A DNA stretch of 64,000 nt from a virus: IMG/VR virus record IMGVR_UViG_3300048850_000068, positions 53,558-117,557 of that record; one strand, written 5' to 3'. The translations under genes and the position numbers were made by a program. Under the pieces are notes generated by a model. It was not told where the DNA came from. It was given only the letters and a program-made list of their open reading frames with translations, and ran no database searches. Every line of letters begins with the position of its first letter. Position 1 is the first letter of the stretch. This document shows, one piece after another, positions 19,486 to 59,595 of this stretch.

Positions 19486-20751
19486 TCAAAGGGAAACACC
19501 GAGGATGTGGACCTGCCGGACCGGGAACTCGAGGTCGATGCAATAACCCATGGCGTCGGCCGGGTGCTCGAGGCCCTGGCTCTTGTCCACCTCGCGGGTG
19601 CCTGGCTTGTAGATGGTCTGCTCGAGGGCCGCGATGGTCTCCCGGCAGGTCTCGTTGACGCGCATCTTCACCACGCCCTCGCCGTTGCGGAACATGCGGT
19701 TCACGGCATTGACGCGGTCGGCGATCTTCGGGTGCTTGCGGCGATACTTCAGCTTCTTGAAGCCCGCCTCGCGCAGGATGTCGAGGTCAGACTCGCCGCG
19801 GGCGTGACCACGCTGCTGGCCGGCCGGGTCCGGATAGAACACGATGGAGTTGAAATGCCGGTGATAGCGCCGTCCGAGCTCGTCGGCGGTCTCTTCGGTG
19901 TTCGAGCCGCGCAGGATCACCTCGTCGACCACCCACACCTCGCCGTTGGGCTGCGGCTGCATGATCACCGAGCTCATCGGATCGATGTTGAAGTCCTGAC
20001 CAATCCAGATCGGCAGCCGCGGATTGAACGGATACTCGCCCACATGCACCTTGCGGTCGAAGGCGTAGTAGACGCGGCCGGACATGGTCTCGAAGGACGC
20101 CTCGAACTCCTGCTTGAAGCTCTTCTCGTCCATGTTCTGCCGCGCGGCCGCGATCTCGGACCGCGGAATAAACGGCGAGGTGATCGTCGGGAACTGCCAC
20201 GACTTATAGGCATTGACGCGCCGCTTGCCCTTCTTGTCGAGGAAGGTGTCGCCGCGCTGGCCCAGCATGTAGACGTCGTAGAGCCAGTTATAGGCCTTGG
20301 GCGTGCCGATGATGATCGCCCGGCCGCGGGTCGAAGCCAGCGTCGGGTAGAGGACCTTATACCAGGTATCCGGATCGATATCCTGCGCCTCGTCGATCAC
20401 GACCATGTGCAGACCGACGCCGCGGAGCGTATCGGGCTTGTCGGCGCCCTTCAGCATGATCCGGGAGCCGTTCTGCAGCCGGATCGTCATCTGGGTTTCG
20501 TTGATCTTCTTGATCCACTTGCGCGGGATCGCGTCCTTCAGCTCATCCCAAAGGATCTGGCGCGCCATTCCGTAGGTGGGCGCCACATACCAGACCAACT
20601 GCTTCGGCTTCGAGGCAGCTTCGGTGATCAGGATCTTGGAGAGCTGCGTCTTGCCCCAGCGTCGGCCGGCGACAACCACCTTGAAGCGGCGCCGATCGCG
20701 GTAGACCTGCTGCTGGCCCTTGTGCAGACGAAGCGGATTGGCGTAGGCCAC
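19486..20751 (-). CDS. terL: Terminase large subunit
   Basis: VAGRRWGKT Walker A, VVIDEA Walker B, GTP coupling motif, GQDFN and HPADAMGY nuclease motifs. Confidence 0.95.
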   Translation of the reverse strand: MAYANPLRLHKGQQQVYRDRRRFKVVVAGRRWGKTQLSKILITEAASKPKQLVWYVAPTYGMARQILWDELKDAIPRKWIKKINETQMTIRLQNGSRIMLKGADKPDTLRGVGLHMVVIDEAQDIDPDTWYKVLYPTLASTRGRAIIIGTPKAYNWLYDVYMLGQRGDTFLDKKGKRRVNAYKSWQFPTITSPFIPRSEIAAARQNMDEKSFKQEFEASFETMSGRVYYAFDRKVHVGEYPFNPRLPIWIGQDFNIDPMSSVIMQPQPNGEVWVVDEVILRGSNTEETADELGRRYHRHFNSIVFYPDPAGQQRGHARGESDLDILREAGFKKLKYRRKHPKIADRVNAVNRMFRNGEGVVKMRVNETCRETIAALEQTIYKPGTREVDKSQGLEHPADAMGYCIDLEFPVRQVHILGVSL

Positions 20752-21392
20752 TAGCCTTCCTCCACCACTTCGTCACCGTCGCTCTCGAGAATGCTGGACA
20801 TGTCCGGCGCTTCCATCTCGGAACCGTCGTCCTCGAGATCGGCGTTGCGCATATCCTCGATCTCCTCGTCGGTGAGGACCTCGATCGGCAGGATCGGCAT
20901 GTCGTTTTCATCGACGTGGCTATCGGCGTCGAGCACCTTGTAGCGGATCTCGGTGGTGTCCTTGAGGATCGCAGCCAGGCCGCGCAGGGTCTTGACGCTG
21001 TTCTGATGCGTGGAGAAGGACGACCCGCCGGGCGTCATCGACTCCTTCATGATCTTCATCATGGCGAGATGCAGGGCTTGCGCGCCCTGGTAGGCCTGCT
21101 CCTTGGTATCCTCGATGCGCTTGTCGCGCTTTTCGGCGAAGGTCTGAGTGGCGACCGGTGCGGACGCCTTCGGGGCGTTCAATTCATGCGCACGCGACCC
21201 GAACACGACCCCGTGCTTGCGGAAGTGCTTCGAGATCGCCATAGCCGAGACGCCGTATTCCTGGGCGAGCTTGCCGCCCCGGGCCTGACCGAGTTCGAAC
21301 TTGTCACGGATCTCCTTCCACTGCGCATCGGTGAGGCGCTTGCCGGAGCCGTTCTCGTCTTCCCCTGTCTGTTCCGGGGTGTCCTCAGACAT
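20751..21392 (-). CDS. Terminase small subunit (probable)
   Basis: N-terminal HTH (LAQEYGVSAMAISKH), immediately upstream of TerL. Confidence 0.7.
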   Translation of the reverse strand: MSEDTPEQTGEDENGSGKRLTDAQWKEIRDKFELGQARGGKLAQEYGVSAMAISKHFRKHGVVFGSRAHELNAPKASAPVATQTFAEKRDKRIEDTKEQAYQGAQALHLAMMKIMKESMTPGGSSFSTHQNSVKTLRGLAAILKDTTEIRYKVLDADSHVDENDMPILPIEVLTDEEIEDMRNADLEDDGSEMEAPDMSSILESDGDEVVEEG

Positions 21393-21423: not shown

Positions 21424-21508
21424 GGGAATTCCCAGAGCCGTCTGCTTACATATATAACTACTAAGTAGTAAGTAATTATATAGTAGCGCGAAGGCGTTGG
21501 GAAATCCC
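21424..21508. promoter_or_regulatory. ~85-bp inverted-repeat element upstream of TerS (copies at 36041-36122 and 36564-36636)
   Basis: GGAATTCCCAGAGCCGTCTGCTTAC...GTAGCGCGAAGGCGTTGGGAAATCC with AT-rich core. Confidence 0.6.
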
Positions 21509-21514
21509 CGGGTG

Positions 21515-21778
21515 TCAGGACACGAAAACCTTAAAAGCTTCCAGGGTTGGCTTGATGTAGAGCTTGCGCTTGCGATGCTCCCGGGCAATCAATCCATGCT
21601 TCTCGAGGAACTTGAGCGAGCACAGAATAGCCTGCTTGGACACATCCGGGCCGTAGCTCAACTTCCCCTTTAGTTCGTGAAGCTCGATGAAGTCTCCGGT
21701 ATCCCGGGCGGTGTCCATCACCAGCTTCATGATCTCCGTTTGCTTGTCGTTCTGGGCGAATTCACCTTGTCCGGGCAT
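21515..21778 (-). CDS. Small winged-helix DNA-binding protein (candidate late regulator)
   Basis: VSKQAILCSLKFLEKHGLIARE..KLYIKPT wHTH pattern. Confidence 0.6.
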   Translation of the reverse strand: MPGQGEFAQNDKQTEIMKLVMDTARDTGDFIELHELKGKLSYGPDVSKQAILCSLKFLEKHGLIAREHRKRKLYIKPTLEAFKVFVS

Positions 21779-22746
21779 CAGCAGGCGCACCTCTGGAAAG
21801 AGGCCTCCTCCGCAAACGTCTTTGCCGTGCGCCAGGCATTCCACGCCTCCCAGTTGAACGGATCGCGCGGGCCCTGCCAGTCGAACGCCTCGAGCGGCAG
21901 ACGATCCGGGAAGATCTTCTTGGGCTCGGGGTTCTTCCAGACGCCATACATCGGCGAGGCCAGGATCACCTGCTGCAGGCTCTTGATCACCTTGCGGGCG
22001 TCCATGTCGTCGACCCGGCCCTGGCCGCGGTCGCGGTTGCCGCCGGTCTTCTCGAGCGCCGAGTGGCGATAATAGAAGTCCTTGCAGGCCTGGAGCAGCT
22101 TTTCACGGGACGCGGGGTCGTGCGCCTCGAGCTCACTGATGATTGCCTCGTAATCCTGCGGGCTCGCCTCGAAGTGGCTGCGGAAGAACTTGAGGCCCTG
22201 GTCGAACTTGTTCGAGTTCATCGGCCGGACGAAGCGGAACCCGGCCTTCTGGCCGAAGATATTGAACTTCGACATGGAGCTCTGGATCTCCATGAAGGTG
22301 TTGCCCTCCATGCGCGAGACCAGGTTCATGGTGCGGTAGCCGGCGCCGATGCCGCGATACATGGTGTCCACGACGAAGCGCGAGATCACCCGGATATTCT
22401 GGTTGATCCAGACGTAGCGCTGGGTGTTGATGTGCTTGTTGTCGGACCCGGGCTTGATGTTCGGGAACGCGAGATGGCGCTCCTTCAGGAGACCCTTGGG
22501 ATTGGCCGTCACCAGCACGCCGATGGTCTCGCCGTCCAGCGTCAGCTTCCAGAAACGAGGCCCGATCGGCAGGTTTTCCGCCTTGTAGTGCAGATCGTGC
22601 AGCAGATTCCAGTCAGACGCATCACCCCGCTCGACGATCATGCGCTCAAGCAGCGAGAAACGTGCTGCCGGGGCGTTTTCGCGCTCGACGTGCGTGATGA
22701 TCGCTGGGAAAGAGAAATCGCGCTCAGTGAGCGTCCCTGTGCTCAT
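21778..22746 (-). CDS. GNAT-fold acyltransferase of the ABC-ATPase-associated (Mom-like) type
   Basis: LHY motif, ISRFVVDTMYRGIGAG acetyl-CoA motif A, MSKFN.F..KAGF. Confidence 0.75.
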   Translation of the reverse strand: MSTGTLTERDFSFPAIITHVERENAPAARFSLLERMIVERGDASDWNLLHDLHYKAENLPIGPRFWKLTLDGETIGVLVTANPKGLLKERHLAFPNIKPGSDNKHINTQRYVWINQNIRVISRFVVDTMYRGIGAGYRTMNLVSRMEGNTFMEIQSSMSKFNIFGQKAGFRFVRPMNSNKFDQGLKFFRSHFEASPQDYEAIISELEAHDPASREKLLQACKDFYYRHSALEKTGGNRDRGQGRVDDMDARKVIKSLQQVILASPMYGVWKNPEPKKIFPDRLPLEAFDWQGPRDPFNWEAWNAWRTAKTFAEEASFQRCAC

Positions 22747-23198
22747 AGCTGCGATGCCCTTCCCATCTTCACCTTACCCTTGAGACCGCGCTCCATGATC
22801 GCGTGAAACCCGTAGTCGTGGCAGACCACGCGGCCCTTGTAGGTGCCCCAGTTGTCGATATGCGTGTCGGCGAAGATCTCCGGCAGCTCCGCCGGCATCT
22901 TCTTGAGCGGCCGTGTGCGCTTCATGATCAGCACGGACCCGGAATGTGAGATCGACACGCAGGGCGCAAACCAGGGCTCCCAGGCGGTGCCCTTGACCTC
23001 ATTCCAGATATGCCACTCGGCGACGTTGCAGAATTCCTTGGTGTCGGAGTGCTCGATCTTCACGACCAGACCGGACTGCGGGCTCATGACCTCGTAGACC
23101 TCGCGATACACCCCGCCCCCTAAGCGCTTGCCCATGAGGGTCGTATTAAGCTCGTGCTGGACCGTGCGGCCCAGGCCGGTCAGCAGATCAAGCCCCAT
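22743..23198 (-). CDS. Minimal protein-kinase-like (ePK-fold) protein
   Basis: LGGGVYREVY, VVK, N.AEW, DTHIDNWG, HDYG. Confidence 0.65.
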   Translation of the reverse strand: MGLDLLTGLGRTVQHELNTTLMGKRLGGGVYREVYEVMSPQSGLVVKIEHSDTKEFCNVAEWHIWNEVKGTAWEPWFAPCVSISHSGSVLIMKRTRPLKKMPAELPEIFADTHIDNWGTYKGRVVCHDYGFHAIMERGLKGKVKMGRASQL

Positions 23199-23547
23199 CG
23201 GACGTCTCCTCGAGGCTTTCGATATGCTCCTTGACGTCCGGCACCTCGAGCGCGGCGATTTCCTCGTCGGTCAGATCGCGCACCTGCAGCGGCGGCACCA
23301 GCTCACCCGGGATGAGAAGGCCGATCGCCTCGAGCAGAATGGGCTTGGGCTGCGAGCGGCCGATGTATTGCTGCGACCAGGCCCACTCGTATTGCCACAG
23401 GTCGACCAGGTGCCCGATCGCCGTCTCGGCGTCCTCGCCCGACGGGAAGATGGCAGCCTGACCGAACTCGCCCTCCGTGAGCGGATCCTTGGTCATGAAG
23501 TTGCCCGAGAGGGTGTTGCGCAGGACGAACACGGCGAGATCGGACAT
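23188..23547 (-). CDS. Hypothetical protein
   Basis: Translationally coupled ORF (MSDLAVFV...). Confidence 0.55.
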   Translation of the reverse strand: MSDLAVFVLRNTLSGNFMTKDPLTEGEFGQAAIFPSGEDAETAIGHLVDLWQYEWAWSQQYIGRSQPKPILLEAIGLLIPGELVPPLQVRDLTDEEIAALEVPDVKEHIESLEETSDGA

Positions 23548-24020
23548 CAGTAGTTTCCTTCGCAGACCTGCAGGCAGCGAATTCCTTCCTCGCGCCACAT
23601 CTTCGTCACGCCGGCCCGATCCTCGACGGCGAAGAGAGGCTCGTAGCCGCCGGCGCGGAGCGCAGCGAGCATGTCCTTCTTCACCTCGGTATCCGGACGA
23701 TAATCGTCTTCCGGGCGCATCATCAGCGCGGTCCAGACGATCTGATGCCGCACGAGCCACTCGATCGTGACCGCTTCGGCCGAACGGCGCCGGCCCGTGA
23801 GAACCCAGACGTGATAGCCGGCCGCGGCCATGGCATTGTTCAGGGCCCGGATCTCCGGATAGACCTTGTCGCCGTCACAGGCGTCAAAGAAGGCCTGCCA
23901 CGCCTCGTCCACGGGCTTGCCCGTCTCGTGCGAGGAGTTCTTCGGCAGCAGATGCAGACGGTGATCGGCATTCGCGAGCGTGCCGTCGATGTCCATGATG
24001 ATGCAGGGCGTTGGGGTCAC
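23547..24020 (-). CDS. HAD phosphatase (T4 Pnkp 3'-phosphatase-like)
   Basis: DIDGTLA, LTGR, MRPEDDYRPD..VK, EDR. Confidence 0.85.
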   Translation of the reverse strand: MTPTPCIIMDIDGTLANADHRLHLLPKNSSHETGKPVDEAWQAFFDACDGDKVYPEIRALNNAMAAAGYHVWVLTGRRRSAEAVTIEWLVRHQIVWTALMMRPEDDYRPDTEVKKDMLAALRAGGYEPLFAVEDRAGVTKMWREEGIRCLQVCEGNY

Positions 24021-24583
24021 AGAATGCTCCAAATCCAGGCCCGCGGATTGCCCGGGCTCTGGTGCTTGACGAAAAAGTGGCGGGTTTCACGCGGAGCGAG
24101 CAGGCGCCCGTCCTGGTTGTCGAGGATGAGGGTGCCGCGGCTGGTGCGGACGGCGAGGACCGCATGGCCCTCCCCGTTCGGGTCCAAAACGACTGTGATC
24201 AACAGGACACTCGAGGGCCAACCCAGCTCCCGAAGCTGGTGCCGCTTGAGGATGACATAGTCTTCACAGTCGCCCATGCCGTCGCGCGGGAAGTCCCACA
24301 CGTCGACCTGGTTAAAGCGGTCGAGATCGCGCACGCCGAGAACGGCCTTGTTGACGCTCCGGTTGACCTGGATCAGCTCGCGCAGGCGCTTGCCGGTGAG
24401 CTCGATGGTCTCGACCGCGGGGCCGGAGACCTGGCACTCGGTCGGATTGCGGTCACAGAACGGCGCAAAGGCATACGGAGCTAAGTCAGTTCTGACTGAT
24501 GCTTGCCCACGCGCGTGAGGCGTGAAGAAGCCCAGGAGAACGAGCCCGACGACAAAGCCGATCGAGATCCGCAGCCAGCTCAC
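24017..24583 (-). CDS. Transglutaminase-like cysteine peptidase (BTLCP/LapG family), exported
   Basis: Signal peptide; GDCEDY..K, GHAVL, ILDN triad. Confidence 0.85.
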   Translation of the reverse strand: MSWLRISIGFVVGLVLLGFFTPHARGQASVRTDLAPYAFAPFCDRNPTECQVSGPAVETIELTGKRLRELIQVNRSVNKAVLGVRDLDRFNQVDVWDFPRDGMGDCEDYVILKRHQLRELGWPSSVLLITVVLDPNGEGHAVLAVRTSRGTLILDNQDGRLLAPRETRHFFVKHQSPGNPRAWIWSIL

Positions 24584-24846
24584 AGAACGCCACCCACGCG
24601 GGACGGCGAGCGCACCACGACGGCGCCGGCCGAGGTCGGCACGATGGCGCTGAGGAGGTGATAGGTCTCGCCGTGAATGTCGGCCCAGGAGCAGCCGTCG
24701 AAGATCACGACGCCGAAGCTCTCGCCGCGCAGGGTCGAGGCCACGAAATCGTCCTTCAGGCTGTCGAGCGAGGTCTCGACGACGCGGCCGGTTCGCAGGT
24801 GCACGATGTTATGATCGCCGGTGCGGCGGATGAGAAGGATGTTCAC
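24580..24846 (-). CDS. Hypothetical protein
   Basis: Overlapping start/stop with both neighbours. Confidence 0.5.
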   Translation of the reverse strand: MNILLIRRTGDHNIVHLRTGRVVETSLDSLKDDFVASTLRGESFGVVIFDGCSWADIHGETYHLLSAIVPTSAGAVVVRSPSRVGGVL

Positions 24847-25481
24847 TGGGCTTGCTCCACTTCGACGCGCTCACGGAAGCGCTTGGTGATGGTGAGGGAC
24901 GGTGCAAGGTCGGCCTTCAGGTCGGTGTGGGTGGTTGCCACCATGAGCGTCTTGCCTTGGTTGCGGGCAACCTTCTGAAGATTGAAGGCGATGACCTTCG
25001 CGGTGGTGCGATCAAGCACCGCCCCAAACTCGTCGGCGATCCAGACGTCGGCGCCGCTCTCGAGCACCTTCGCCAGCTTCAGCCGGTAACGTTGGCCGTC
25101 GGAGAGCTCCGAGGGCTTGCGAATGTAGATCCAGGCATCCGAGATGCCGGCGAGAGCAAGCAGGTGCATGCCCTCGGTGATGGTCTTGCCCACGAGCTCG
25201 ATCACGGGCCGGTCCTCGAGGGTGATCTCGTTTAGATCCGCAACCGACAGACCCTCGGCCCGCATCTGCGCGTGCAGATCCTTGAGCAGCAGAGACTTGC
25301 CGGAGCCGGACTGACCGGTGATGTAGACCACGTCGCCGGCATTCACCTCGAGGGCGAGGTTGTCGTAGATGACGAATTCCTTCTGGGACAGACCCAGCCC
25401 GAAGCCCTCGGCGACCTCGAGCACCCGCGGCGTGCGCTCGACGCTCGACGTAAACTTGCGGGTGATGGTGTAGGTGGTCAT
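24843..25481 (-). CDS. Soluble ABC ATPase (partner of GNAT acyltransferase)
   Basis: GQSGSGKS, LSDGQ signature, IADEF, TTH; no permease nearby. Confidence 0.88.
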   Translation of the reverse strand: MTTYTITRKFTSSVERTPRVLEVAEGFGLGLSQKEFVIYDNLALEVNAGDVVYITGQSGSGKSLLLKDLHAQMRAEGLSVADLNEITLEDRPVIELVGKTITEGMHLLALAGISDAWIYIRKPSELSDGQRYRLKLAKVLESGADVWIADEFGAVLDRTTAKVIAFNLQKVARNQGKTLMVATTHTDLKADLAPSLTITKRFRERVEVEQAQ

Positions 25482-25861
25482 GCGGGCTGTCCGTCGTCGT
25501 CAATCTCGTCGTCGTATTGAAGCGGATCCCCGTCGCACTCGGCCATCATCAGGAGCTCGTCGCGCAGCGTGCAGGAGGAGCCAGCCATACGGTAATAGCC
25601 GGCTCGGTTCTGCTCGCCCGGGGCGGGCGTGTGATACATGACCGGAACCCAGTTCTCCGGATCGAAGGCCATCGCCACGAGCCCGACGAGCTCGCCCTTG
25701 CGGAGCTTCTCGAGCAGGTTTTCGACCGCCCCGATGGCGACGACGTCGATATCGCCGGCCTTGAGCGGTTCGCTTTCCTTGAGCTCCACCGGTGACGGCG
25801 CCTGGTAGGGGCGCCGGTCGAGGCGGATGACCTTGGTCTCTGGTGTATCCTGGTCCGACAT
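25478..25861 (-). CDS. Hypothetical protein
   Basis: Coupled ORF. Confidence 0.55.
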   Translation of the reverse strand: MSDQDTPETKVIRLDRRPYQAPSPVELKESEPLKAGDIDVVAIGAVENLLEKLRKGELVGLVAMAFDPENWVPVMYHTPAPGEQNRAGYYRMAGSSCTLRDELLMMAECDGDPLQYDDEIDDDGQPA

Positions 25862-25881
25862 GTTCAGTCAATCCTGACTTA

Positions 25882-26574
25882 TTAATCGAGGCGATCAGCA
25901 ACTTCGGAAAGCGCGGCGATGAGAGCTTCCGGGCCCTGCAGCCCGCCCTTGGTCTCGATGCGGCTCATGAAGTTTCGAATTTCACGGGACTGGGCGACCG
26001 TCACGCGCTTGAAGCCGAGGGCGTCCCCGACCGGGGCCAGAGAGCCGTCGACGTCCTTGGCCTTCTGGGTGTTCTCGGTCTTCTGCTCCTCGACAGCCTC
26101 GCCGATATCGTCCACGAACACGTCGTCCTCGACGTTGAACTCGCCGAGGTCTGCTGCCATGAAATCGAGCGTCTTGGCGTCAAAGCCCAGACTGTCCATG
26201 TCGAAGCCGGTCTCGTAGAGCGCGGCGAGCTCGGCCTGCAGCACTTCCGTATCGTATTCCTTGCCGGCGACCTCGTTATCGGACAGGCGCAGGGCGTTGG
26301 CTTCGGCTTCGGTCAGATCCGAACGGACGATGACCGGCACCTTCTTGAAGCGCTCGTCGCCATTGTCGCGCAGCAGGATCGAGGCCAGGCGCCGGCCGTG
26401 GCCGGCGATGATCACGCCGTCGGTCCAGACCTGGATCGGGTTCGAGATCCGGAACTTGGCAAGGCTCTTCGAGAGCTTCTCGACCTCGGCCGGCGGGTGC
26501 TTCTTGGGGTTGTTCGGATAGGGAACCAGGCGGTCGAGATCCCAGAACTCGATTACGGGCTTGTGCTCACTCAT
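25882..26574 (-). CDS. ParB/Srx-domain protein
   Basis: LVPYPNNPKKH, IIAGHGRRLA, RLSDN. Confidence 0.88.
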   Translation of the reverse strand: MSEHKPVIEFWDLDRLVPYPNNPKKHPPAEVEKLSKSLAKFRISNPIQVWTDGVIIAGHGRRLASILLRDNGDERFKKVPVIVRSDLTEAEANALRLSDNEVAGKEYDTEVLQAELAALYETGFDMDSLGFDAKTLDFMAADLGEFNVEDDVFVDDIGEAVEEQKTENTQKAKDVDGSLAPVGDALGFKRVTVAQSREIRNFMSRIETKGGLQGPEALIAALSEVADRLD

Positions 26575-26749
26575 CGTCGGTCATTCCTGCAACAATTTCC
26601 TGGAGCTCGTCGGCGTCCGGGAGGGCCTTTTCTTCCACCTTCTCCTCGAAGAACTCGCCGGCGCCGCAGCGCAGGCAGTTCACATTGAGACGGCGGGCAT
26701 TCCAGAAGACGCAGCGCCGGCAATCGTCATGGCGGGGCTCATGCGGCAT
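26567..26749 (-). CDS. Small CxxC..CxxC zinc-binding protein
   Basis: CRRC..CLRC; coupled to neighbours. Confidence 0.5.
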   Translation of the reverse strand: MPHEPRHDDCRRCVFWNARRLNVNCLRCGAGEFFEEKVEEKALPDADELQEIVAGMTDDE

Positions 26750-26987
26750 AGGAAGCTCCCGGGAAGGGGTCTTCGTTCAGCGCGGGAGCCGGGCGAATCT
26801 CGCCGACATAGAGGGCGTTGCGCAGGTATCCCCGCTGCGAGGCGCCCTTCTTGTAGAATTCGTAGGCCTGGCCGTCGGACCGGACCCAGTAGAAGTGAAC
26901 CCGGCCGCGGCGGTTGCGCATCAGGCGCACATTCGACCCGCCGCAGAGCAGAGCCACGAGAAAGCAATTGCCCGGAAACCGCATCAC
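26739..26987 (-). CDS. Hypothetical protein
   Basis: Coupled ORF. Confidence 0.45.
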   Translation of the reverse strand: MMRFPGNCFLVALLCGGSNVRLMRNRRGRVHFYWVRSDGQAYEFYKKGASQRGYLRNALYVGEIRPAPALNEDPFPGASYAA

Positions 26988-27658
26988 TCGGTCTCCTCGT
27001 CCTCGGTCTTGCCGCCCAGCAGCAGGAAGACCAGGGCATCGCCGGCATTGGTGAGCTCGTCGCCAGAGGTGAAGCCGTGCTTCTTCTGGGTCTTGGCGAT
27101 CAGAGCGGTGATGCTCTCGGCATCGGTGAGACCGACCTTATAGCGCTGGATCGTATGCGTCTTCGGCGCTGTTGCCTGGGGTGGCTCAGGCTTTTCGTCG
27201 GTCTTCGTATAGTTTTCGTCAATATCCAAGTCATCAAGTGCTATATCTACACTTGAGAAGATCGAACGAATATCAGCATCAGAATAAGGAAGGATCGCTT
27301 GAACTTCATCCCCGCCCAGTTCTTCGAGGAGCTTTGCCAATTCGATCGTGTCATCGGCGCCGTAACGGGCATTGTCGGCGAGCATGATCTTCTTGGCGAT
27401 GTCATCGGACACGGTGCCGATGTTCCAGACGTCGATCTTAGTCCAGCCCTTGTTCTTGGCCTGGTCCCAGCGGTGCTCGCCGCCGAGGATCTCGTAGGGC
27501 GTATCGGTCTCCCCGGTCTCCCGAACCACGATCGGCTTGAAGAAGGGCAGCTCGTCGAGCGAGTTGGCGATCTTGTCCTCGTTCTCCGGGGTCACGATGT
27601 TCGTGTTCCACGGATTCGGGCGCAGCAGATCGATATCGACAGAAAGGTGTTGGGGCAC
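26984..27658 (-). CDS. ParB/Srx-domain protein
   Basis: LRPNPWNTN, ILGGEHRW, LADN. Confidence 0.88.
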   Translation of the reverse strand: MPQHLSVDIDLLRPNPWNTNIVTPENEDKIANSLDELPFFKPIVVRETGETDTPYEILGGEHRWDQAKNKGWTKIDVWNIGTVSDDIAKKIMLADNARYGADDTIELAKLLEELGGDEVQAILPYSDADIRSIFSSVDIALDDLDIDENYTKTDEKPEPPQATAPKTHTIQRYKVGLTDAESITALIAKTQKKHGFTSGDELTNAGDALVFLLLGGKTEDEETE

Positions 27659-27726
27659 CAGGGGTTCCTATGCTAAGTCAGTAATGACTTATCATAGATC
27701 CATCAGAAGGCAAGTGGCAATCAGTA

Positions 27727-40185: not shown

Positions 40186-41727
40186 TTACCAGCGGCTCTT
40201 CTTGCCGTTCTTGTGAACGTTGAGGATGACGGTGTTGACGTAGGTTCCGACCGATGCGAACGAACCAGCCGGCAGGTCGGTCCAATCCGCGCCCTTGCTC
40301 TCCATGAGCGCCCGGAAGGCAACGGCCTTCTTGGTCTCACGGAATTCGGTGCCGGCCGACAGGATCGCCACGAGCTGCCCGTCCTCCTCGAGGAAGTCTA
40401 GGGCGTGCATGATATGGTCGATGTCCCGTTCCCGGTCGAAAGGCGGATTCATCACCACCCGATTGTAGAGGCCCGTCACCTGTGGGCTGAGTGTCAGGAA
40501 GTCCTGCACATAGACCTTGCGGTAGATGCCTTCAACCTCGAGGCCTGCGGCCAGGTGCGGCTGGATCTCCACGCAATCGACGACCGTCGCATAGGTATAC
40601 TCGGCGAGCTGTCGGCGCATCCAATCGTTTCCGGCAGTCTCTTCGCCGCGCACCAGGCGCCGCGCCAGGTTGCCGGTGCCGGCCGAGGGCTCGAGGATTC
40701 GGATCGGGCCCTTGTCCCGCTTCTGCATGACCGATACCTTGCCGATCACACGTTCCGCGGCGTCCTCCGGTGTCGGGAAGAAGCCGAAGTAGCGGGCCGG
40801 CGTGGTCTTGCGGTTGCCCTCGCTGAGCGGATCCTCCTCGGCCTGCTGACCGTCGCCGATCACCTCGCCGTAGTATTCGCCGAGCAGCTTGTTGACCTTC
40901 TGCACCAGATCGTCGCGCCTGAACCAGATATGCGCGTTGCCGTTCTTGAAGCCGCGGATCAGGAAGTATTCGGTCTCGAGCTCCGTCTGTCGCTTGCCGC
41001 CGAAGCCTGAGCGCTGGTGTCGGAGCTGCCGCACGGCCGACGTGAAGCCACTCTCCGGCTTGCCGTCGAGCACCGCGAACACTCGCTCCACGTCCACGAT
41101 CATATCCTCGATCCGACCCCAGTTCAGATGCCCATAATCGTCGAAGGCATAGGTGAGGATGATCCGAGAGCCGATCTTGAAGCCGTCGTGCGACTTGAAG
41201 CGCCGATCGAGGGCCGAGAACACATTGGCGATGCCGCGGCGGAAGATGAGGCCTTGCTGAGAGCGGAAGTGCTCGAGGGTCGCGATGATGTTGTCGACCG
41301 TGACCTCGGGCATGCCCTGAGCCTGCTCTTCCTCGGTGATCAACTGACCGCGCTTGTTCGGCTTCATCGGAACATAGGCCATCTGCTTCCGGAGCTGATC
41401 CTTGGCCTCCTTGTCCATCAGCCGCTCGAGGTCGGTGCGCTCGATCAACCAGGACCAGACATTGATATCGATCAGGCGCTTGGCGACGGTGAGATACTGA
41501 TCCCGCGGCGGTGGAGCGACGGCGTTGAAGAACGCCTTCACCTCGTCGGCGTGCTGGTGATTGAAGGAGTTGGTGCCGGGCGAGGCCGACCAGGCAACCT
41601 CATTTGCGGCCCTGACCGCCTCCTGAGCCTGCAGAATGGCGCTGTGAGCCACTCCATACAGCTCAATGGCCTTGTTGCGTCGTTCGACGATCTCCTCGAC
41701 CGTCTCTCGGCGTGCAATCGCGTTCAT
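40186..41727 (-). CDS. DUF4942-domain + class I SAM-dependent (amino) DNA methyltransferase
   Basis: FKNGNAHIWF; FFPTP, ILEPSAGTG, VMNPPF. Confidence 0.85.
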   Translation of the reverse strand: MNAIARRETVEEIVERRNKAIELYGVAHSAILQAQEAVRAANEVAWSASPGTNSFNHQHADEVKAFFNAVAPPPRDQYLTVAKRLIDINVWSWLIERTDLERLMDKEAKDQLRKQMAYVPMKPNKRGQLITEEEQAQGMPEVTVDNIIATLEHFRSQQGLIFRRGIANVFSALDRRFKSHDGFKIGSRIILTYAFDDYGHLNWGRIEDMIVDVERVFAVLDGKPESGFTSAVRQLRHQRSGFGGKRQTELETEYFLIRGFKNGNAHIWFRRDDLVQKVNKLLGEYYGEVIGDGQQAEEDPLSEGNRKTTPARYFGFFPTPEDAAERVIGKVSVMQKRDKGPIRILEPSAGTGNLARRLVRGEETAGNDWMRRQLAEYTYATVVDCVEIQPHLAAGLEVEGIYRKVYVQDFLTLSPQVTGLYNRVVMNPPFDRERDIDHIMHALDFLEEDGQLVAILSAGTEFRETKKAVAFRALMESKGADWTDLPAGSFASVGTYVNTVILNVHKNGKKSRW

Positions 41728-43955
41728 TCCTGCCCTTCTCCCTTCTTGCGCCGAGCGATCTGACGCTCGATGTTTGCCAGCAACCCGGACGGGTGGTTCA
41801 TCCGCGTCCAGTGCTGCACCACGTTGCTGTCCTGATCGAATGCCTCGACGATCCAGCGCTCGCCGGGATCGGGGTTGGCCCGTATAGCTGCGCGGACTGC
41901 CTTTTCGTGAAGCATTAGGCCCTCCCCGCCCGCTTGGCGTTCTTGCGAGCCCGCTTGTCCGCGGCCGCATTGATGATCGGCGCCTCGCGCTCCAGGCGCA
42001 GCCGCTCCTGCTCAGCCCACCAGGCCTCGCGCTTCAGCTTTCGCAGGTGGAACTCGTAGGCGTTGATGTGCGAGCGGTATTCCGGGAGGTATTTGCGGCG
42101 CTGCTGCTCGTCGTGGGCGCGCTTCTCCTCCTCAGTCATGCGTGTTCCGCGCGAAGCGCCGTAGAAGTATTGGCTGCCAACCGCCGCCGCGAGCATCGAC
42201 GCGGCGATCGGCAGGCTCATGTGTCGGTGACCCGCGACCATCAGGCGAGCTCCTTACCCAGGCGCTCGCGCCAGATATTCATCAGCGTCCACACCTGGTC
42301 CGTGTCCGTGTGTTCCGCGGCTTGGCACTCGGCGTCGAATTGGTTGATCTGCTCGTGGATATCGATGGCGACGTTTACGAGCTCCGGCTTCGGGCCGCAG
42401 TTGATGTGCTCGCACAGATCATCCACCTCGCCATCGTCGAGGAAGAAGTCGCGCCCGTTCTGCGCGATCTCCAACAGATCGTTGCTCGGCAGGCTGGTTT
42501 TCTGCCACAGCCGCAGCGCAGCGAGAATAATGTCGCGCTCTTCGGCGCTGACGGCGATGATCTGATCTCTTGGGCCGATTTCGTCTGTCATGTTAAGCCT
42601 CAGTAATTACTGACTTATTTACTGTCGCACACTTACTCTTGGATTGCGGGCGGTTGCTCGAGGATCTCGTAGCGGTCGATGCCGTCGAGCAAGATGAGGG
42701 TGCGGCCGGTGTCCCACTTGACGAACACCTGGCGCACGCCGTCGCCAACCTCGACGCCGATCCGCTTAACCGTGCCTTCGTCGCCGATCTTAATCGGGAA
42801 CGGATCGTGCGGCATCTCGAGGAGCTTGATGCGGGTGCCTTCCTTAAGCTGCGTCATTGGTGCTCTCCATCAGAACCTTCTCAAGTCCATTATCCAAATC
42901 CACATGGCGCGCGGCCCACTCCCAATAGGAGAGCCGCGTGTCGCCGCTTTGAACCTCGAGGCGCCAGTCCGTGAGATCGTAGTCGGGGTGCTCGCCGTTG
43001 AACCCGCCGTTCTCCTCCATGACCTTGTTCACGAACGAGATCCACGGCTGCCCATCTTCCGGGGTGAGATCCACGTGCGTCGTGGTCTTGGTGGGCAGAT
43101 CGACCACCTTGAACACCGTGGCGATGCTCGTCGGGTCGCGCTGGATGTCGAGCGCCTTCTGAGCCGCTTCCTGCGGGCTGTCGGCGTCGAGGTTGATCTT
43201 CCAGGAGACGAGGAACTCAGTCATCGGACGTTCCTTCCTGGTCGAGGAACTCGATCAGCTCGTTGGCGCTCATGTGCCCGCCCTTGATCTTGGAGTCGAG
43301 GAAGCGGCCGAGCACCGAAACGACCGTTTCTGGCGTCCAGTCGTAATCGTCAGCGGCGTTGATGATGATGGTTTCAGCGTCCATTAGTCTTGTCCCTCCT
43401 CAACAGGATCGGTGTCGTTGATGCCGACGGCTTCCAGCCACTCGTCATCCGGCAGCTCGCGGATTCGCTTAAGCAGGGCTGCCTTGAGCAGATCCGGAGT
43501 AAAGTCCTCGCCCATCACGTCGTTGGAGAGCACGCTGAAGGCGATGACGCATTGATGATTGAATTTCGGCATCAGGCCGCGACCCCTGCATATTCGCTGT
43601 TGCGGTATTGAGCGCGCAGGCGCTCCTCGGGCGTCTCGAAGCAGCCTTCGTCGAGCAGGAACTCGTAGAGGGCCTTTTCCGCCTCTTCGAGGCTCGGGGC
43701 GTGCTCGGTGACGCAGATCCAGCAGTATTCGAACCGCCCGGCCGTCTCGAGGATGGAATAGTAGGTGGTCAGGGCGTCGCCATCGTCCCAGCGATAGCTA
43801 ACGGGGTAGAGGTAGACGGTTGTTGCCTTCTCACCGTCACCGCTCGGACCTGTCTCGTCGCAGCCGGCCTGAAACCAGGCGTCGATCACATGAGGGTCGG
43901 TCGGCTTGCCGGTGATGCGGGCGGCGCTGAACTGCTCAATCGTATGTGTGGGCAT
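41724..43955 (-). CDS. Run of small hypothetical ORFs (41724-41915, 41915-42241, 42241-42591, 42633-42857 DUF4314-like, 42844-43224, 43384-43572, 43572-43955)
   Basis: Coupled ORFs; 42633-42857 has RIKLLEMPHDP..G.EGTV..VKWDTG pattern. Confidence 0.55.
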
Positions 43956-53500: not shown

Positions 53501-53577
53501 CCCGCGCGGCCCGTGGGCTCCGGCAGGAAGTGCCCTGTCGGAACGTGCTTGATGGCATACTTGGTGATCGTGGTCAC
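50502..53577 (-). CDS. Run of small hypothetical ORFs (50502-~50777, 50863-~51246, 51246-51443, 51440-51874, 51877-~52110, 52176-52532, 52845-~53051, 53056-53247, 53266-53577)
   Basis: Coupled ORFs, many joined by TAGCGAAAGG junctions. Confidence 0.55.
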
Positions 53578-58857: not shown

Positions 58858-59379
58858 TCATAGATGCGTCCATGTCTTCCTCGCTCGAATATCTTTCAGG
58901 GTCTTCATGCTTACTGATTTCATTATAGCGATTTCGCTAAGGGATGCTTCCGGCGCTGCGCGGATTTCTTCAACATCCAGCGCCGTTAGCTTCGCATTGG
59001 CGTTCGAGGAACCTCTGGTCGCCTTCAAGCCCGTCTCGTAGGCGTGCTTTTCCTGCTCGGCGCGGGTCGCCCATTCCAGATTGGATTCCCAGTTGTGCGC
59101 CTTCACACCGTCCTTATGATTGACCTCGGGCTTGTTCTCCGGGTTCGGGATATGAGCGAGCGCAACCATGCGGTTGACCAGCACGCTCTTGACGATCCCT
59201 TCGAACGTCATGGTGAAGTAGATGCGGCCCGTCTTCTTATGGGTCGAGGGCGTCACCTTCTTGTAGATGCGCTTCCCATTCTCCGTGCGCTTGTGCTTCC
59301 AGATCGTGCCGTCCTTCTTGGCGACATAGACCCGTTGCTTCAGCGCACGGAGAATCCAGGCGTCCTTGTCGAATGCCAT
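58858..59379 (-). CDS. HNH homing-type endonuclease
   Basis: VNRMVALAHIPNPENKPEVNHKDGVKAHN..NLEW; C-terminal AKLT..HTH. Confidence 0.85.
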   Translation of the reverse strand: MAFDKDAWILRALKQRVYVAKKDGTIWKHKRTENGKRIYKKVTPSTHKKTGRIYFTMTFEGIVKSVLVNRMVALAHIPNPENKPEVNHKDGVKAHNWESNLEWATRAEQEKHAYETGLKATRGSSNANAKLTALDVEEIRAAPEASLSEIAIMKSVSMKTLKDIRARKTWTHL

Positions 59380-59595
59380 CAGTCGTGATCCGGGTAGGAC
59401 ATGCCGAGATATTGCATGTTGGAGCGGCGATAGACCTGCCAGCCCATCGAGAAGGCGTGCCAAATCAGAACTTCTGTCGGAGTGACCACGGTATAGCCAC
59501 TGCGACGGATCCATTGCTCGCGGGAGAACCGCTCGTTCATGTGTTCACCAGGTCCACAAAGAACATCACGAGCCCGAGCAGCACGACGAAACCCA

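Follow-up and report, generated by a model that had tools for sequence, protein, structure and literature searches.

A terminase-linked ParB-ABC ATPase-GNAT gene block in a relative of phages SSU5, nickie and RHEph10: a candidate DNA acylation module not tied by distribution to the GG/CC-free island

Gene content of the locus

We analyzed a 64,000-nucleotide stretch of viral DNA (the window), positions 53,558 to 117,557 of IMG/VR record IMGVR_UViG_3300048850_000068. The window forms the second half of one 117,557-bp contig; among named elements it is most closely related to Rhizobium phage RHEph10 and to further siphophages and phage-plasmids of 84-122 kb. The subject of this study is an operon that precedes the packaging genes and encodes two proteins with a ParB_N domain, an ABC ATPase and a GNAT-fold acyltransferase. 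An earlier interpretation made from the letters alone (the sequence-only reading) had placed these genes, with a mini-kinase, a HAD phosphatase and a small zinc protein, upstream of terS and terL, and had proposed that the set writes a mark on virion DNA at GG/CC. All the listed genes were recovered on the minus strand, co-oriented; a LapG/BTLCP-type cysteine protease, four small open reading frames (ORFs) and a gene for a small winged helix-turn-helix (wHTH)-like protein had escaped the list.

The operon consists of 14 minus-strand genes, read from 27658 to 21515, and runs into terS, terL and the portal gene, all in the same orientation. Its genes overlap by 1-16 nucleotides (nt) or are spaced by 20 nt, and a 122-nt gap with a sigma-70-like promoter match separates the end of the operon from terS. 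The genes on which the following sections turn are these (sizes in amino acids, aa):

26984..27658, minus strand: ParB_N protein 2 (ParB2), 224 aa, first operon gene; PF02195 E 9.8e-9, 35.6 bits against a cut-off of 26.3; phrog_723 E 4e-57; motif GGEHR
25882..26574, minus strand: ParB_N protein 1 (ParB1), 230 aa; phrog_930 E 8.8e-64; phrog_498 (ParB-methyltransferase family) E 5.9e-34; motif GHGRR
24843..25481, minus strand: ABC ATPase, 212 aa; PF00005 E 4.3e-13; phrog_293 E 1.5e-44, over positions 117-349 of a 1058-position profile
21778..22746, minus strand: GNAT-fold acyltransferase, 322 aa; phrog_886 E 2.4e-117; fold matches from AlphaFold2 with Foldseek and VIA
21515..21778, minus strand: small wHTH-like protein, 87 aa, final operon gene; phrog_900 E 2.9e-9; Penicillinase_R E 0.03, below cut-off
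20751..21392, minus strand: terS-like DNA-binding protein, directly ahead of terL; phrog_867 E 6.1e-31
19486..20751, minus strand: terminase large subunit (terL); PF04466, PF17289 and PF03237; phrog_2 E 1.3e-55

The ABC ATPase and GNAT proteins as a split enzyme

The ABC ATPase has all the motifs of its class: Walker A (GQSGSGKS), the signature (LSDGQ), Walker B (VWIADE) and the H-loop. It had been described as permease-less, and this description holds: apart from the signal-like N-terminus of the protease, none of the 16 products encoded from portal to ParB has a transmembrane (TM)-like segment, and the NCBIfam transporter models all scored far below their cut-offs.

The 322-aa protein has no match to a Pfam family at E ≤ 0.1, and an NCBIfam scan was also empty. 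An AlphaFold2 model based on 34 homologues reached a mean pLDDT of 91.3 and a pTM of 0.82. Searched with Foldseek against the PDB, this model gave 48 matches at E ≤ 0.001, all 33 entries listed being of GNAT type; the top rows are polyamine, agmatine and arylalkylamine N-acetyltransferases, while TmcA (2zpa) ranks 8, Mom 10 and NAT10 (9j3c) 26. On re-alignment with VIA, 603 of 998 chains had Z ≥ 8 and the top 50 were tied at Z 10.2-11.4; Mom (8bv8) scored Z 11.0 with an rmsd of 4.0 over 168 aligned residues, the longest alignment in the list. The acyl-CoA loop (R131-G-I-G134-A-G) is conserved, with R131 and G134 invariant in the 34 sequences. At the level of the predicted structure, the GNAT fold of the protein is confirmed, and the term "Mom-like", as applied to it, means "GNAT" and nothing more specific.

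The presence of TmcA and NAT10 among the fold matches raises the possibility that the pair is an ATP-dependent acetyltransferase of RNA (tRNA) cytidine. Both enzymes follow the same ATPase-plus-GNAT logic: a P-loop ATPase is joined to a GNAT domain that acylates the amine of a nucleobase, giving N4-acetylcytidine in RNA. However, theirs is a helicase-type ATPase, whereas the one encoded here is of the ABC class; they act on RNA as cellular housekeeping enzymes, unconnected with ParB or terminase. A tRNA-binding domain was not detected in the present case, and the conserved neighbors are ParB and terminase genes rather than tRNA genes. We consider an RNA acetyltransferase highly improbable.

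Relatives of the GNAT protein are more telling with regard to its partner. A HMMER scan of 1.84 billion representative sequences (50%-identity) returned 217 relatives at E ≤ 0.001, of which 150 were listed. ABC and GNAT domains share one chain in 65 of these 150, with the ABC domain first in 64; 37 are stand-alone proteins of GNAT size and 49 are fragments. The query aligns to the C-terminal half of the fused proteins, whose lengths are roughly 390-910 aa. When eight fused proteins were scanned with Pfam, ABC_tran was found in all eight and a GNAT family in seven; two of those scanned also bear a TFIIB or Gins51_C domain, and one such cluster includes a protein from Nitrososphaerota. The two activities are thus made as a single polypeptide in many other viruses, bacteria and archaea, and close homologues of the window's proteins carry the database name "ABC-type ATPase with predicted acetyltransferase domain". 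Here the single-polypeptide arrangement is absent: the ABC and GNAT genes lie 2.1 kb apart with five ORFs between them. In related phages the spacing is one to four small ORFs, and in BUCTxx99 the two genes are adjacent. The homology to fused ABC-GNAT proteins identifies the two genes, as judged from sequence, as the split form of a fused COG2401-type enzyme.

For this type of enzyme a function has already been proposed. Iyer et al. 2021 (PMC7824862, section 3.4.7) recall an earlier prediction that a GNAT coupled with an ABC ATPase carries out an uncharacterised acyl modification of a DNA base; as summarized there, the source is Iyer, Zhang, Burroughs and Aravind 2013 (NAR). That such a proposal existed had been a premise of the sequence-only reading, and section 3.4.7 bears it out. 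The prediction of base acylation by ABC-GNAT enzymes is therefore already in print, and the module described here is a split member of that predicted system. It shares with the fused COG2401-type systems the same two domains, homologous by sequence, and a viral setting beside packaging genes; it differs in being divided between two genes separated by lineage-specific inserts, and in the addition of two ParB_N proteins and a wHTH protein.

Conservation of the gene block and linkage to terminase

A tblastn search with the GNAT protein retrieved 31 phage records, all of 84-122 kb and all belonging to the SSU5/nickie/RHEph10 group. They comprise phages of Rhizobium, Pseudomonas syringae (nickie-like), Stenotrophomonas and Xanthomonas as well as SSU5-like elements of Salmonella, Klebsiella and Escherichia. 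The same order is found in RHEph10, nickie, SSU5, BUCTxx99, JGB6, Cyrano and B1VFA: a divergent helicase gene, then ParB-(small)-ParB-ABC-(small)-GNAT and a small wHTH gene, with the terS-like, terL and portal genes next wherever the sequence reaches (the SSU5 and Cyrano records stop after the wHTH gene). A small ORF between the two ParB genes is also seen in RHEph10 and nickie. The ATG of the window's wHTH gene overlaps the stop codon of the GNAT gene, and a small gene occupies this position in RHEph10, nickie, SSU5, BUCTxx99, Cyrano and B1VFA too. In comparison with six whole genomes, protein identities are 52-68% for the ABC ATPase, 38-60% for GNAT, 34-53% for the two ParBs and 56-70% for TerL. 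Finally, among IMG/VR loci found via the helicase and having at least 6.5 kb of upstream flank, 52 of 52 carry all four genes (ParB, ParB, ABC, GNAT). By these sequence comparisons, ParB-ParB-ABC-GNAT-wHTH-terS-terL forms a core block that has been passed on vertically within the SSU5/nickie/RHEph10 group.

As to the general make-up of these elements, the genes of RHEph10 include those for a sigma factor of its own, for RIIA/RIIB and RtcB, for a dNMP phosphatase and for the alpha subunit of DNA polymerase III; for a phage-plasmid this is an extensive set of autonomous replication and takeover functions.

The linkage to terminase extends beyond this group. An alignment of fused ABC-GNAT proteins was used to fetch 80 other viral contigs (929 kb; median GC 0.47, which indicates that they come from different phages). 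In 59 of the 80, the fused gene is immediately preceded, on the same strand, by a TerL-like ORF. Two distinct gene orders thus preserve the tie to terminase, and no other comparative argument for a role linked to packaging is as strong. It was also observed that in many of the 80 contigs the sequence ends within a few bases of the end of the fused gene.

The ParB_N proteins and partition

Both ParB1 and ParB2 display the traits of the ParB/Srx superfamily, a ParB_N domain and a GxxR box. The family matches span only the N-terminal ~100 residues, and the score of TIGR00180 (35.3 bits) falls below its cut-off of 58.45. ParB2, which is 36-52% identical across six phage genomes, matches the N-terminal domains of Noc and ParB among PDB sequences (E 4e-5 to 8e-5). 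ParB1 has neither a Pfam match nor a PDB sequence match; it aligns to positions 9-157 of the PADLOC model MTase_II (PDLC03229) at E 2e-23, that is, to the N-terminal, ParB part of the model. This likeness to the ParB_N-methyltransferase fusions of phages and plasmids, seen also with phrog_498, supports the notion that the ParB_N protein could be the DNA-engaging arm of a modifier. The operon differs from these fusions in lacking a methyltransferase domain, the partner being instead a separate ABC-GNAT pair. A PADLOC search for defense systems gave only generic ABC matches and this ParB part of a methyltransferase model, and identity with a defense system was rejected on these grounds.

Partition genes are found elsewhere in the window:

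31474-32121, plus strand: ParA, partition candidate

The parA gene lies 3.8 kb from the ParB genes, on the opposite strand, and is followed by a gene for a 100-aa protein (the pair spanning 31474-32420, plus strand) with three weak ribbon-helix-helix (RHH) matches, E 0.02-0.1. ParA and the RHH-like protein probably constitute the true partition pair of the element, distinct from the two ParB_N proteins.

One could nonetheless envision the ParBs as plasmid partition proteins, or as nucleases involved in DNA maturation, with ABC and GNAT as unrelated passengers. The element does resemble a plasmid in possessing ParA and, at 34530-34660, an iteron-like array, and database records label the ParB genes of relatives as partition proteins or ParB-like nucleases. 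This interpretation must contend with the fact that the four genes keep their order and overlap across lineages at 38-68% protein identity, nickie included, and PMC8537276 describes the Nickievirus isolate psageB1 as showing no temperate behavior. In addition, ABC and GNAT occur elsewhere as a single fused protein, and ParA adjoins its own small RHH-like partner, weak as the matches of the latter are. We judge such a division of labor very unlikely.

Side by side with these plasmid features it may be mentioned that the first and last 200 bases of the genome have, by eye, a stretch of ~80 bases in common in the same orientation, which fits a circular or circularly assembled molecule.

Accessory genes and small ORFs

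The remaining features of the operon are the following:

27691..27720, minus strand: sigma-70-like promoter ahead of the operon, TTGCCA-18-TATGAT, 10/12 matches; consensus match only
26739..26987, minus strand: small ORF, 82 aa, with overlapping junctions; no family match
26567..26749, minus strand: zinc-ribbon-like protein with four cysteines, 60 aa; two CxxC pairs; a 41% identical ORF in RHEph10 only
25478..25861, minus strand: small ORF, 127 aa, 4-nt overlap with the ABC gene; no family match
24580..24846, minus strand: small ORF, 88 aa; phrog_20443 E 0.009 only
24017..24583, minus strand: LapG/BTLCP-type cysteine protease, accessory insert; PF06035 E 1.1e-49; NF045674 LapG E 1.7e-10, below cut-off
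23547..24032, minus strand: PNKP-type HAD phosphatase, accessory insert; PF25109 HAD_PNKP E 1.9e-27; phrog_415 E 1.1e-45; DxDxT present
23188..23547, minus strand: small ORF, ~119 aa; no family match
22743..23198, minus strand: kinase-like protein, 151 aa, accessory insert; phrog_4301 E 1.6e-32
21475..21503, minus strand: sigma-70-like promoter in the gap ahead of terS, TTCCCA-17-TATAAT, 10/12 matches; consensus match only

The nearest named Atlas clusters of the kinase-like protein are Phage_T7_kinase (0.92) and Kinase-PolyVal (0.91), which are to be taken as leads only. Residues 1-19 of the protease are TM-like or signal-like and the protein looks periplasmic; LapG-like homologues are periplasmic proteases that release adhesins. 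The sequence-only reading had noted the kinase and the HAD phosphatase as interspersed among the genes of the module; neither they nor the protease are conserved parts of it. The kinase-like gene is present in 10 of the 52 related loci and the HAD and protease genes in three each, and none of the three was found in the six named phage genomes compared. Judged by distribution, all three are lineage-specific inserts at a permissive spot rather than parts of a pathway or machine.

The GG/CC-free island

Beyond the helicase lies the sequence that had motivated the assignment of a GG/CC-writing role to the module:

32906..34525, no strand: GG/CC-free island; 1373 bp without GG/CC (32906-34279) plus 246 bp after a single GG

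The island contains a promoter-like leader and three ORFs, one of which specifies a 224-aa product without Gly, Pro or Trp. About 170 GG/CC would be expected over its length; no second stretch of this kind exists in the 117,557-bp genome, and none of the other dinucleotides behaves comparably. Its observed/expected ratio (O/E) in 600-bp windows is 0.0, against a genome median of 0.82. The island is therefore real, and its place, 2-8 kb beyond the helicase, is conserved in many relatives. What is not borne out is that it belongs to the module.

The sequence-only reading held that the module marks virion DNA at GG/CC and that the island is an exempt early operon, writer and island forming one system. 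Several observations agree with this proposal. Every island-bearing genome seen carries the module (although all of them come from the group whose members invariably have it), and the RHEph10 annotation lists no other DNA-modifying enzyme. Furthermore, the partial islands of three loci (L106, L109 and L125), ~2-4.5 kb downstream of the helicase, tolerate CGG/CCG and GGT/ACC while GGG, GGC, GGA and TGG are nearly absent, so that the banned word seems narrower in some lineages; a ban on only some GG words would fit an enzyme that reads sequence and whose word drifts.

The comparison of genomes tells a different story. Seven whole genomes with the module were examined for co-occurrence: the element's own, nickie, RHEph10, SSU5, BUCTxx99, Cyrano and JGB6. 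The module is present in all seven and a strict island in three. The longest gap is 1373 bp in the element itself, 1137 bp in nickie and, in RHEph10, 549 bp for GG/CC or 1255 bp for GGC/GCC, with O/E of 0.00-0.01 in 600-bp windows. SSU5, BUCTxx99 and Cyrano have minimum O/E values of 0.50-0.53, equal to background minima elsewhere in the same genomes, and JGB6 has only a 254-bp gap with an O/E of 0.47. A scan of SSU5, BUCTxx99 and Cyrano for islands free of other words of 2-4 nucleotides found nothing scoring above 14.5 except one stretch in Cyrano, near 22.9-23.3 kb, which lacks TA/ATA over 615-1101 bp (score 23.8-25.5). In the syntenic AT-rich stretch of SSU5 and Cyrano, AGG/CCT is only about 2-fold low.

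The larger set of loci gives the same picture. Island state was scored as strict (O/E ≤ 0.10), partial (0.13-0.32) or absent (none within 10 kb downstream of the helicase). Among the 33 loci fully viewed on both sides of the helicase, all 33 carry the module, whereas the island is strict in 24, partial in six and absent in three; the upstream 10 kb of the same loci, taken as a control, gave minima of 0.51-0.68. On a quick tree of 39 helicase rows, from which JGB6 was left out because its helicase is split in the record, the three island states require at least eight changes with the module in every row, and even two loci with near-identical helicases (L097 and L101) differ in the strictness of their islands. 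Lastly, none of the 80 fused ABC-GNAT phage loci, part-genomes that make for weak evidence, showed a dinucleotide-free stretch, the best score being 8.0 against 66-201 for real islands. Island absence in the presence of the module, as in SSU5, Cyrano and BUCTxx99, is one half of what the sequence-only reading had named as counting against it.

Palindrome counts argue in the same direction. If a mark protected every GG/CC, palindromes containing these dinucleotides should escape purging; yet 6-bp palindromes with at most one copy are as frequent among GG/CC-containing as among GG/CC-free words in the element's own genome (2/14 versus 12/50; Mann-Whitney p 0.86), in RHEph10 (5/14 versus 13/50; p 0.38) and in nickie (6/14 versus 22/50; p 0.65). 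Summed over the three island-bearing genomes the figures are 13/42 and 47/150; in four island-less genomes, 16/56 GG/CC-containing palindromes have at most one copy. An apparent tendency of nickie to purge only GG/CC-free hexamer palindromes (median O/E 0.06 versus 0.94) was discarded as an artefact of the Markov expectation combined with a filter of E ≥ 5, the full table giving the counts above. Equal purging implies that GG/CC sites are not shielded from restriction-type selection and argues against blanket protection of GG/CC, with the caveat that a mark need not block every enzyme and that purging may act while the element replicates unmarked. Taken together, these data do not support a GG/CC-writing role for the module, which we now regard as improbable.

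A modified version of the proposal can be entertained for the island-bearing lineages (RHEph10-like and nickie-like). There, the ParB/ABC/GNAT set would acylate a base within a short GG word that drifts between lineages, at the time of packaging; the island, as a small regulator operon, would have to stay free of the word for being read first from marked virion DNA, and in SSU5-like elements the target would be different or relaxed and the island decayed. A drifting target word would explain the tolerance of CGG and GGT in the islands of some relatives. The palindrome counts argue against any mark by which every GG/CC would be protected, and the comparisons yield no positive support. This version, too, strikes us as a long shot.

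Other candidates for a GG/CC-reading or -writing factor were considered. In a phyletic profile of three genomes against four, confounded by descent, only two genuine ORFs have counterparts limited to RHEph10 and nickie, the two relatives with an island: one specifies a tail component resembling HK97 gp10 and the other a protein with a weak likeness to HNH_3. The latter (218 aa; 58858-59514, minus strand; E 8e-4, below cut-off) is 45% identical in RHEph10 and 27% in nickie and is found in no other of the six genomes. This is too little, and from too few genomes, to name either one as reader or writer.

Two further observations concern restriction and modification in general. A 594-aa protein encoded at 40186-41970 (minus strand) matches DUF4942 (E 2.9e-44) and PADLOC methyltransferase models, and is a probable DNA methyltransferase; among the six genomes, homologues occur only in SSU5 and Cyrano. 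Separately, GTAC is absent from the 117,557-bp genome (Markov expectation 143) and from RHEph10 (expectation 96), and CAGCTG is absent as well (0 versus 31 expected), which points to strong restriction-type selection.

Discussion

The explanation that we find best suited to the data, and which we put forward tentatively as falling just short of an even call, is that the module performs ParB-assisted, ATP-driven transfer of an acyl group to phage DNA around the time of packaging. In such a scheme, the ParB_N proteins would load or hold the ABC-GNAT enzyme on replicated phage DNA. ATP-driven dimerization of the ABC domains would clamp the substrate, and the GNAT domain would then move an acyl group from an activated donor to an exocyclic amine on a base, either just ahead of packaging or in its course. 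We infer this mechanism from the domain identities, the intact motifs, the homology to the fused form and the terminase link in two gene orders. The match of ParB1 to the ParB part of methyltransferase fusions favors it, as does the fact that partition is covered elsewhere, by ParA and its weak RHH-like partner.

Analogies can be drawn with two other phage modification systems. In PMC13229309, phage ParB homologues are reported, on experimental evidence, to activate cognate thymine dioxygenases. These 5mYOX enzymes resemble the present case in that, as described there, the gene for a short phage ParB homologue adjoins that of a DNA modifier and lies near terminase genes. They differ in the partners involved, an Fe/2OG dioxygenase and one ParB as opposed to an ABC-GNAT pair and two ParBs; Pfam and PHROGs family scans found no Fe/2OG dioxygenase domain in the window's operon. 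The second analogy is with Mom of phage Mu, which is described in PMC13219725 as a GNAT-fold protein that uses Gly-tRNA and modifies N6 of adenine in double-stranded DNA. The premise that Mom is a GNAT-fold DNA modifier was thus sound, and the likeness includes the fold, a late phage gene and a predicted action on an exocyclic amine. However, the window's GNAT has no Pfam match at E ≤ 0.1, Mom works without an ATPase or ParB, and the structural score of Mom is tied with those of ordinary GNATs.

A number of findings weigh against DNA acylation. Members of the GNAT superfamily mostly acylate proteins or small molecules. In keeping with this, the VIA score of Mom (Z 11.0) lies among those of protein and small-molecule enzymes (Z 10.2-11.4), polyamine and arylalkylamine acetyltransferases fill the top Foldseek rows, and the protein, having no Pfam match, does not belong by sequence to the Mom family model. 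A ParB profile, built from the SSU5/nickie/RHEph10 group only, detected no ParB at any of the 80 fused-form loci; this could mean that partnership with ParB is not general, or that the profile was too restricted. The association with terminase fits other packaging-linked roles equally well. A literature search, to which subscription papers and supplements were out of reach, found no experimental work on the COG2401/MK0520 ABC-GNAT family and no report of DNA modification in SSU5, nickie, RHEph10 or B1VFA.

Alternatively, the ABC-GNAT enzyme could acylate a protein or a small molecule connected with packaging or host takeover, with the ParB_N proteins as nucleoside triphosphate-dependent adaptors. 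Targets might include terminase, the portal, a capsid protein, a host protein, or polyamines packaged with the DNA. The polyamine, agmatine and arylalkylamine N-acetyltransferases at the head of the Foldseek table are suggestive in this respect, and protein acetyltransferases that act on N-termini or lysines have tied VIA scores of Z 10-11. The operon also holds inserts that are directed at the host (the kinase-like protein with its T7-kinase leads and the periplasmic LapG-like protease). On the other hand, the partners and fusions of the enzyme are DNA-related (ParB_N, the TFIIB repeat, Gins51_C and the adjacency of TerL), and the nearest counterparts of ParB1 are ParB domains that form part of DNA methyltransferase fusions. 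We view a protein or small-molecule substrate as the main rival to DNA acylation, although an unlikely one.

As for the island, the result is a negative one: the neighboring module, which was the obvious suspect, is not tied to it by distribution, and GG/CC sites behave as unprotected in restriction-type site avoidance. The significance of the module itself lies in its reach. The ABC-GNAT enzyme is as well conserved as terminase and capsid genes in phages and phage-plasmids that include elements of Salmonella, Klebsiella and Escherichia, and an ABC-GNAT pair beside terminase ranks among the most widespread phage gene sets whose chemistry is only predicted. Were phage DNA to be its substrate, the acylated base would represent a new class of DNA modification, and the module would become the second experimental case of base modification assisted by ParB.

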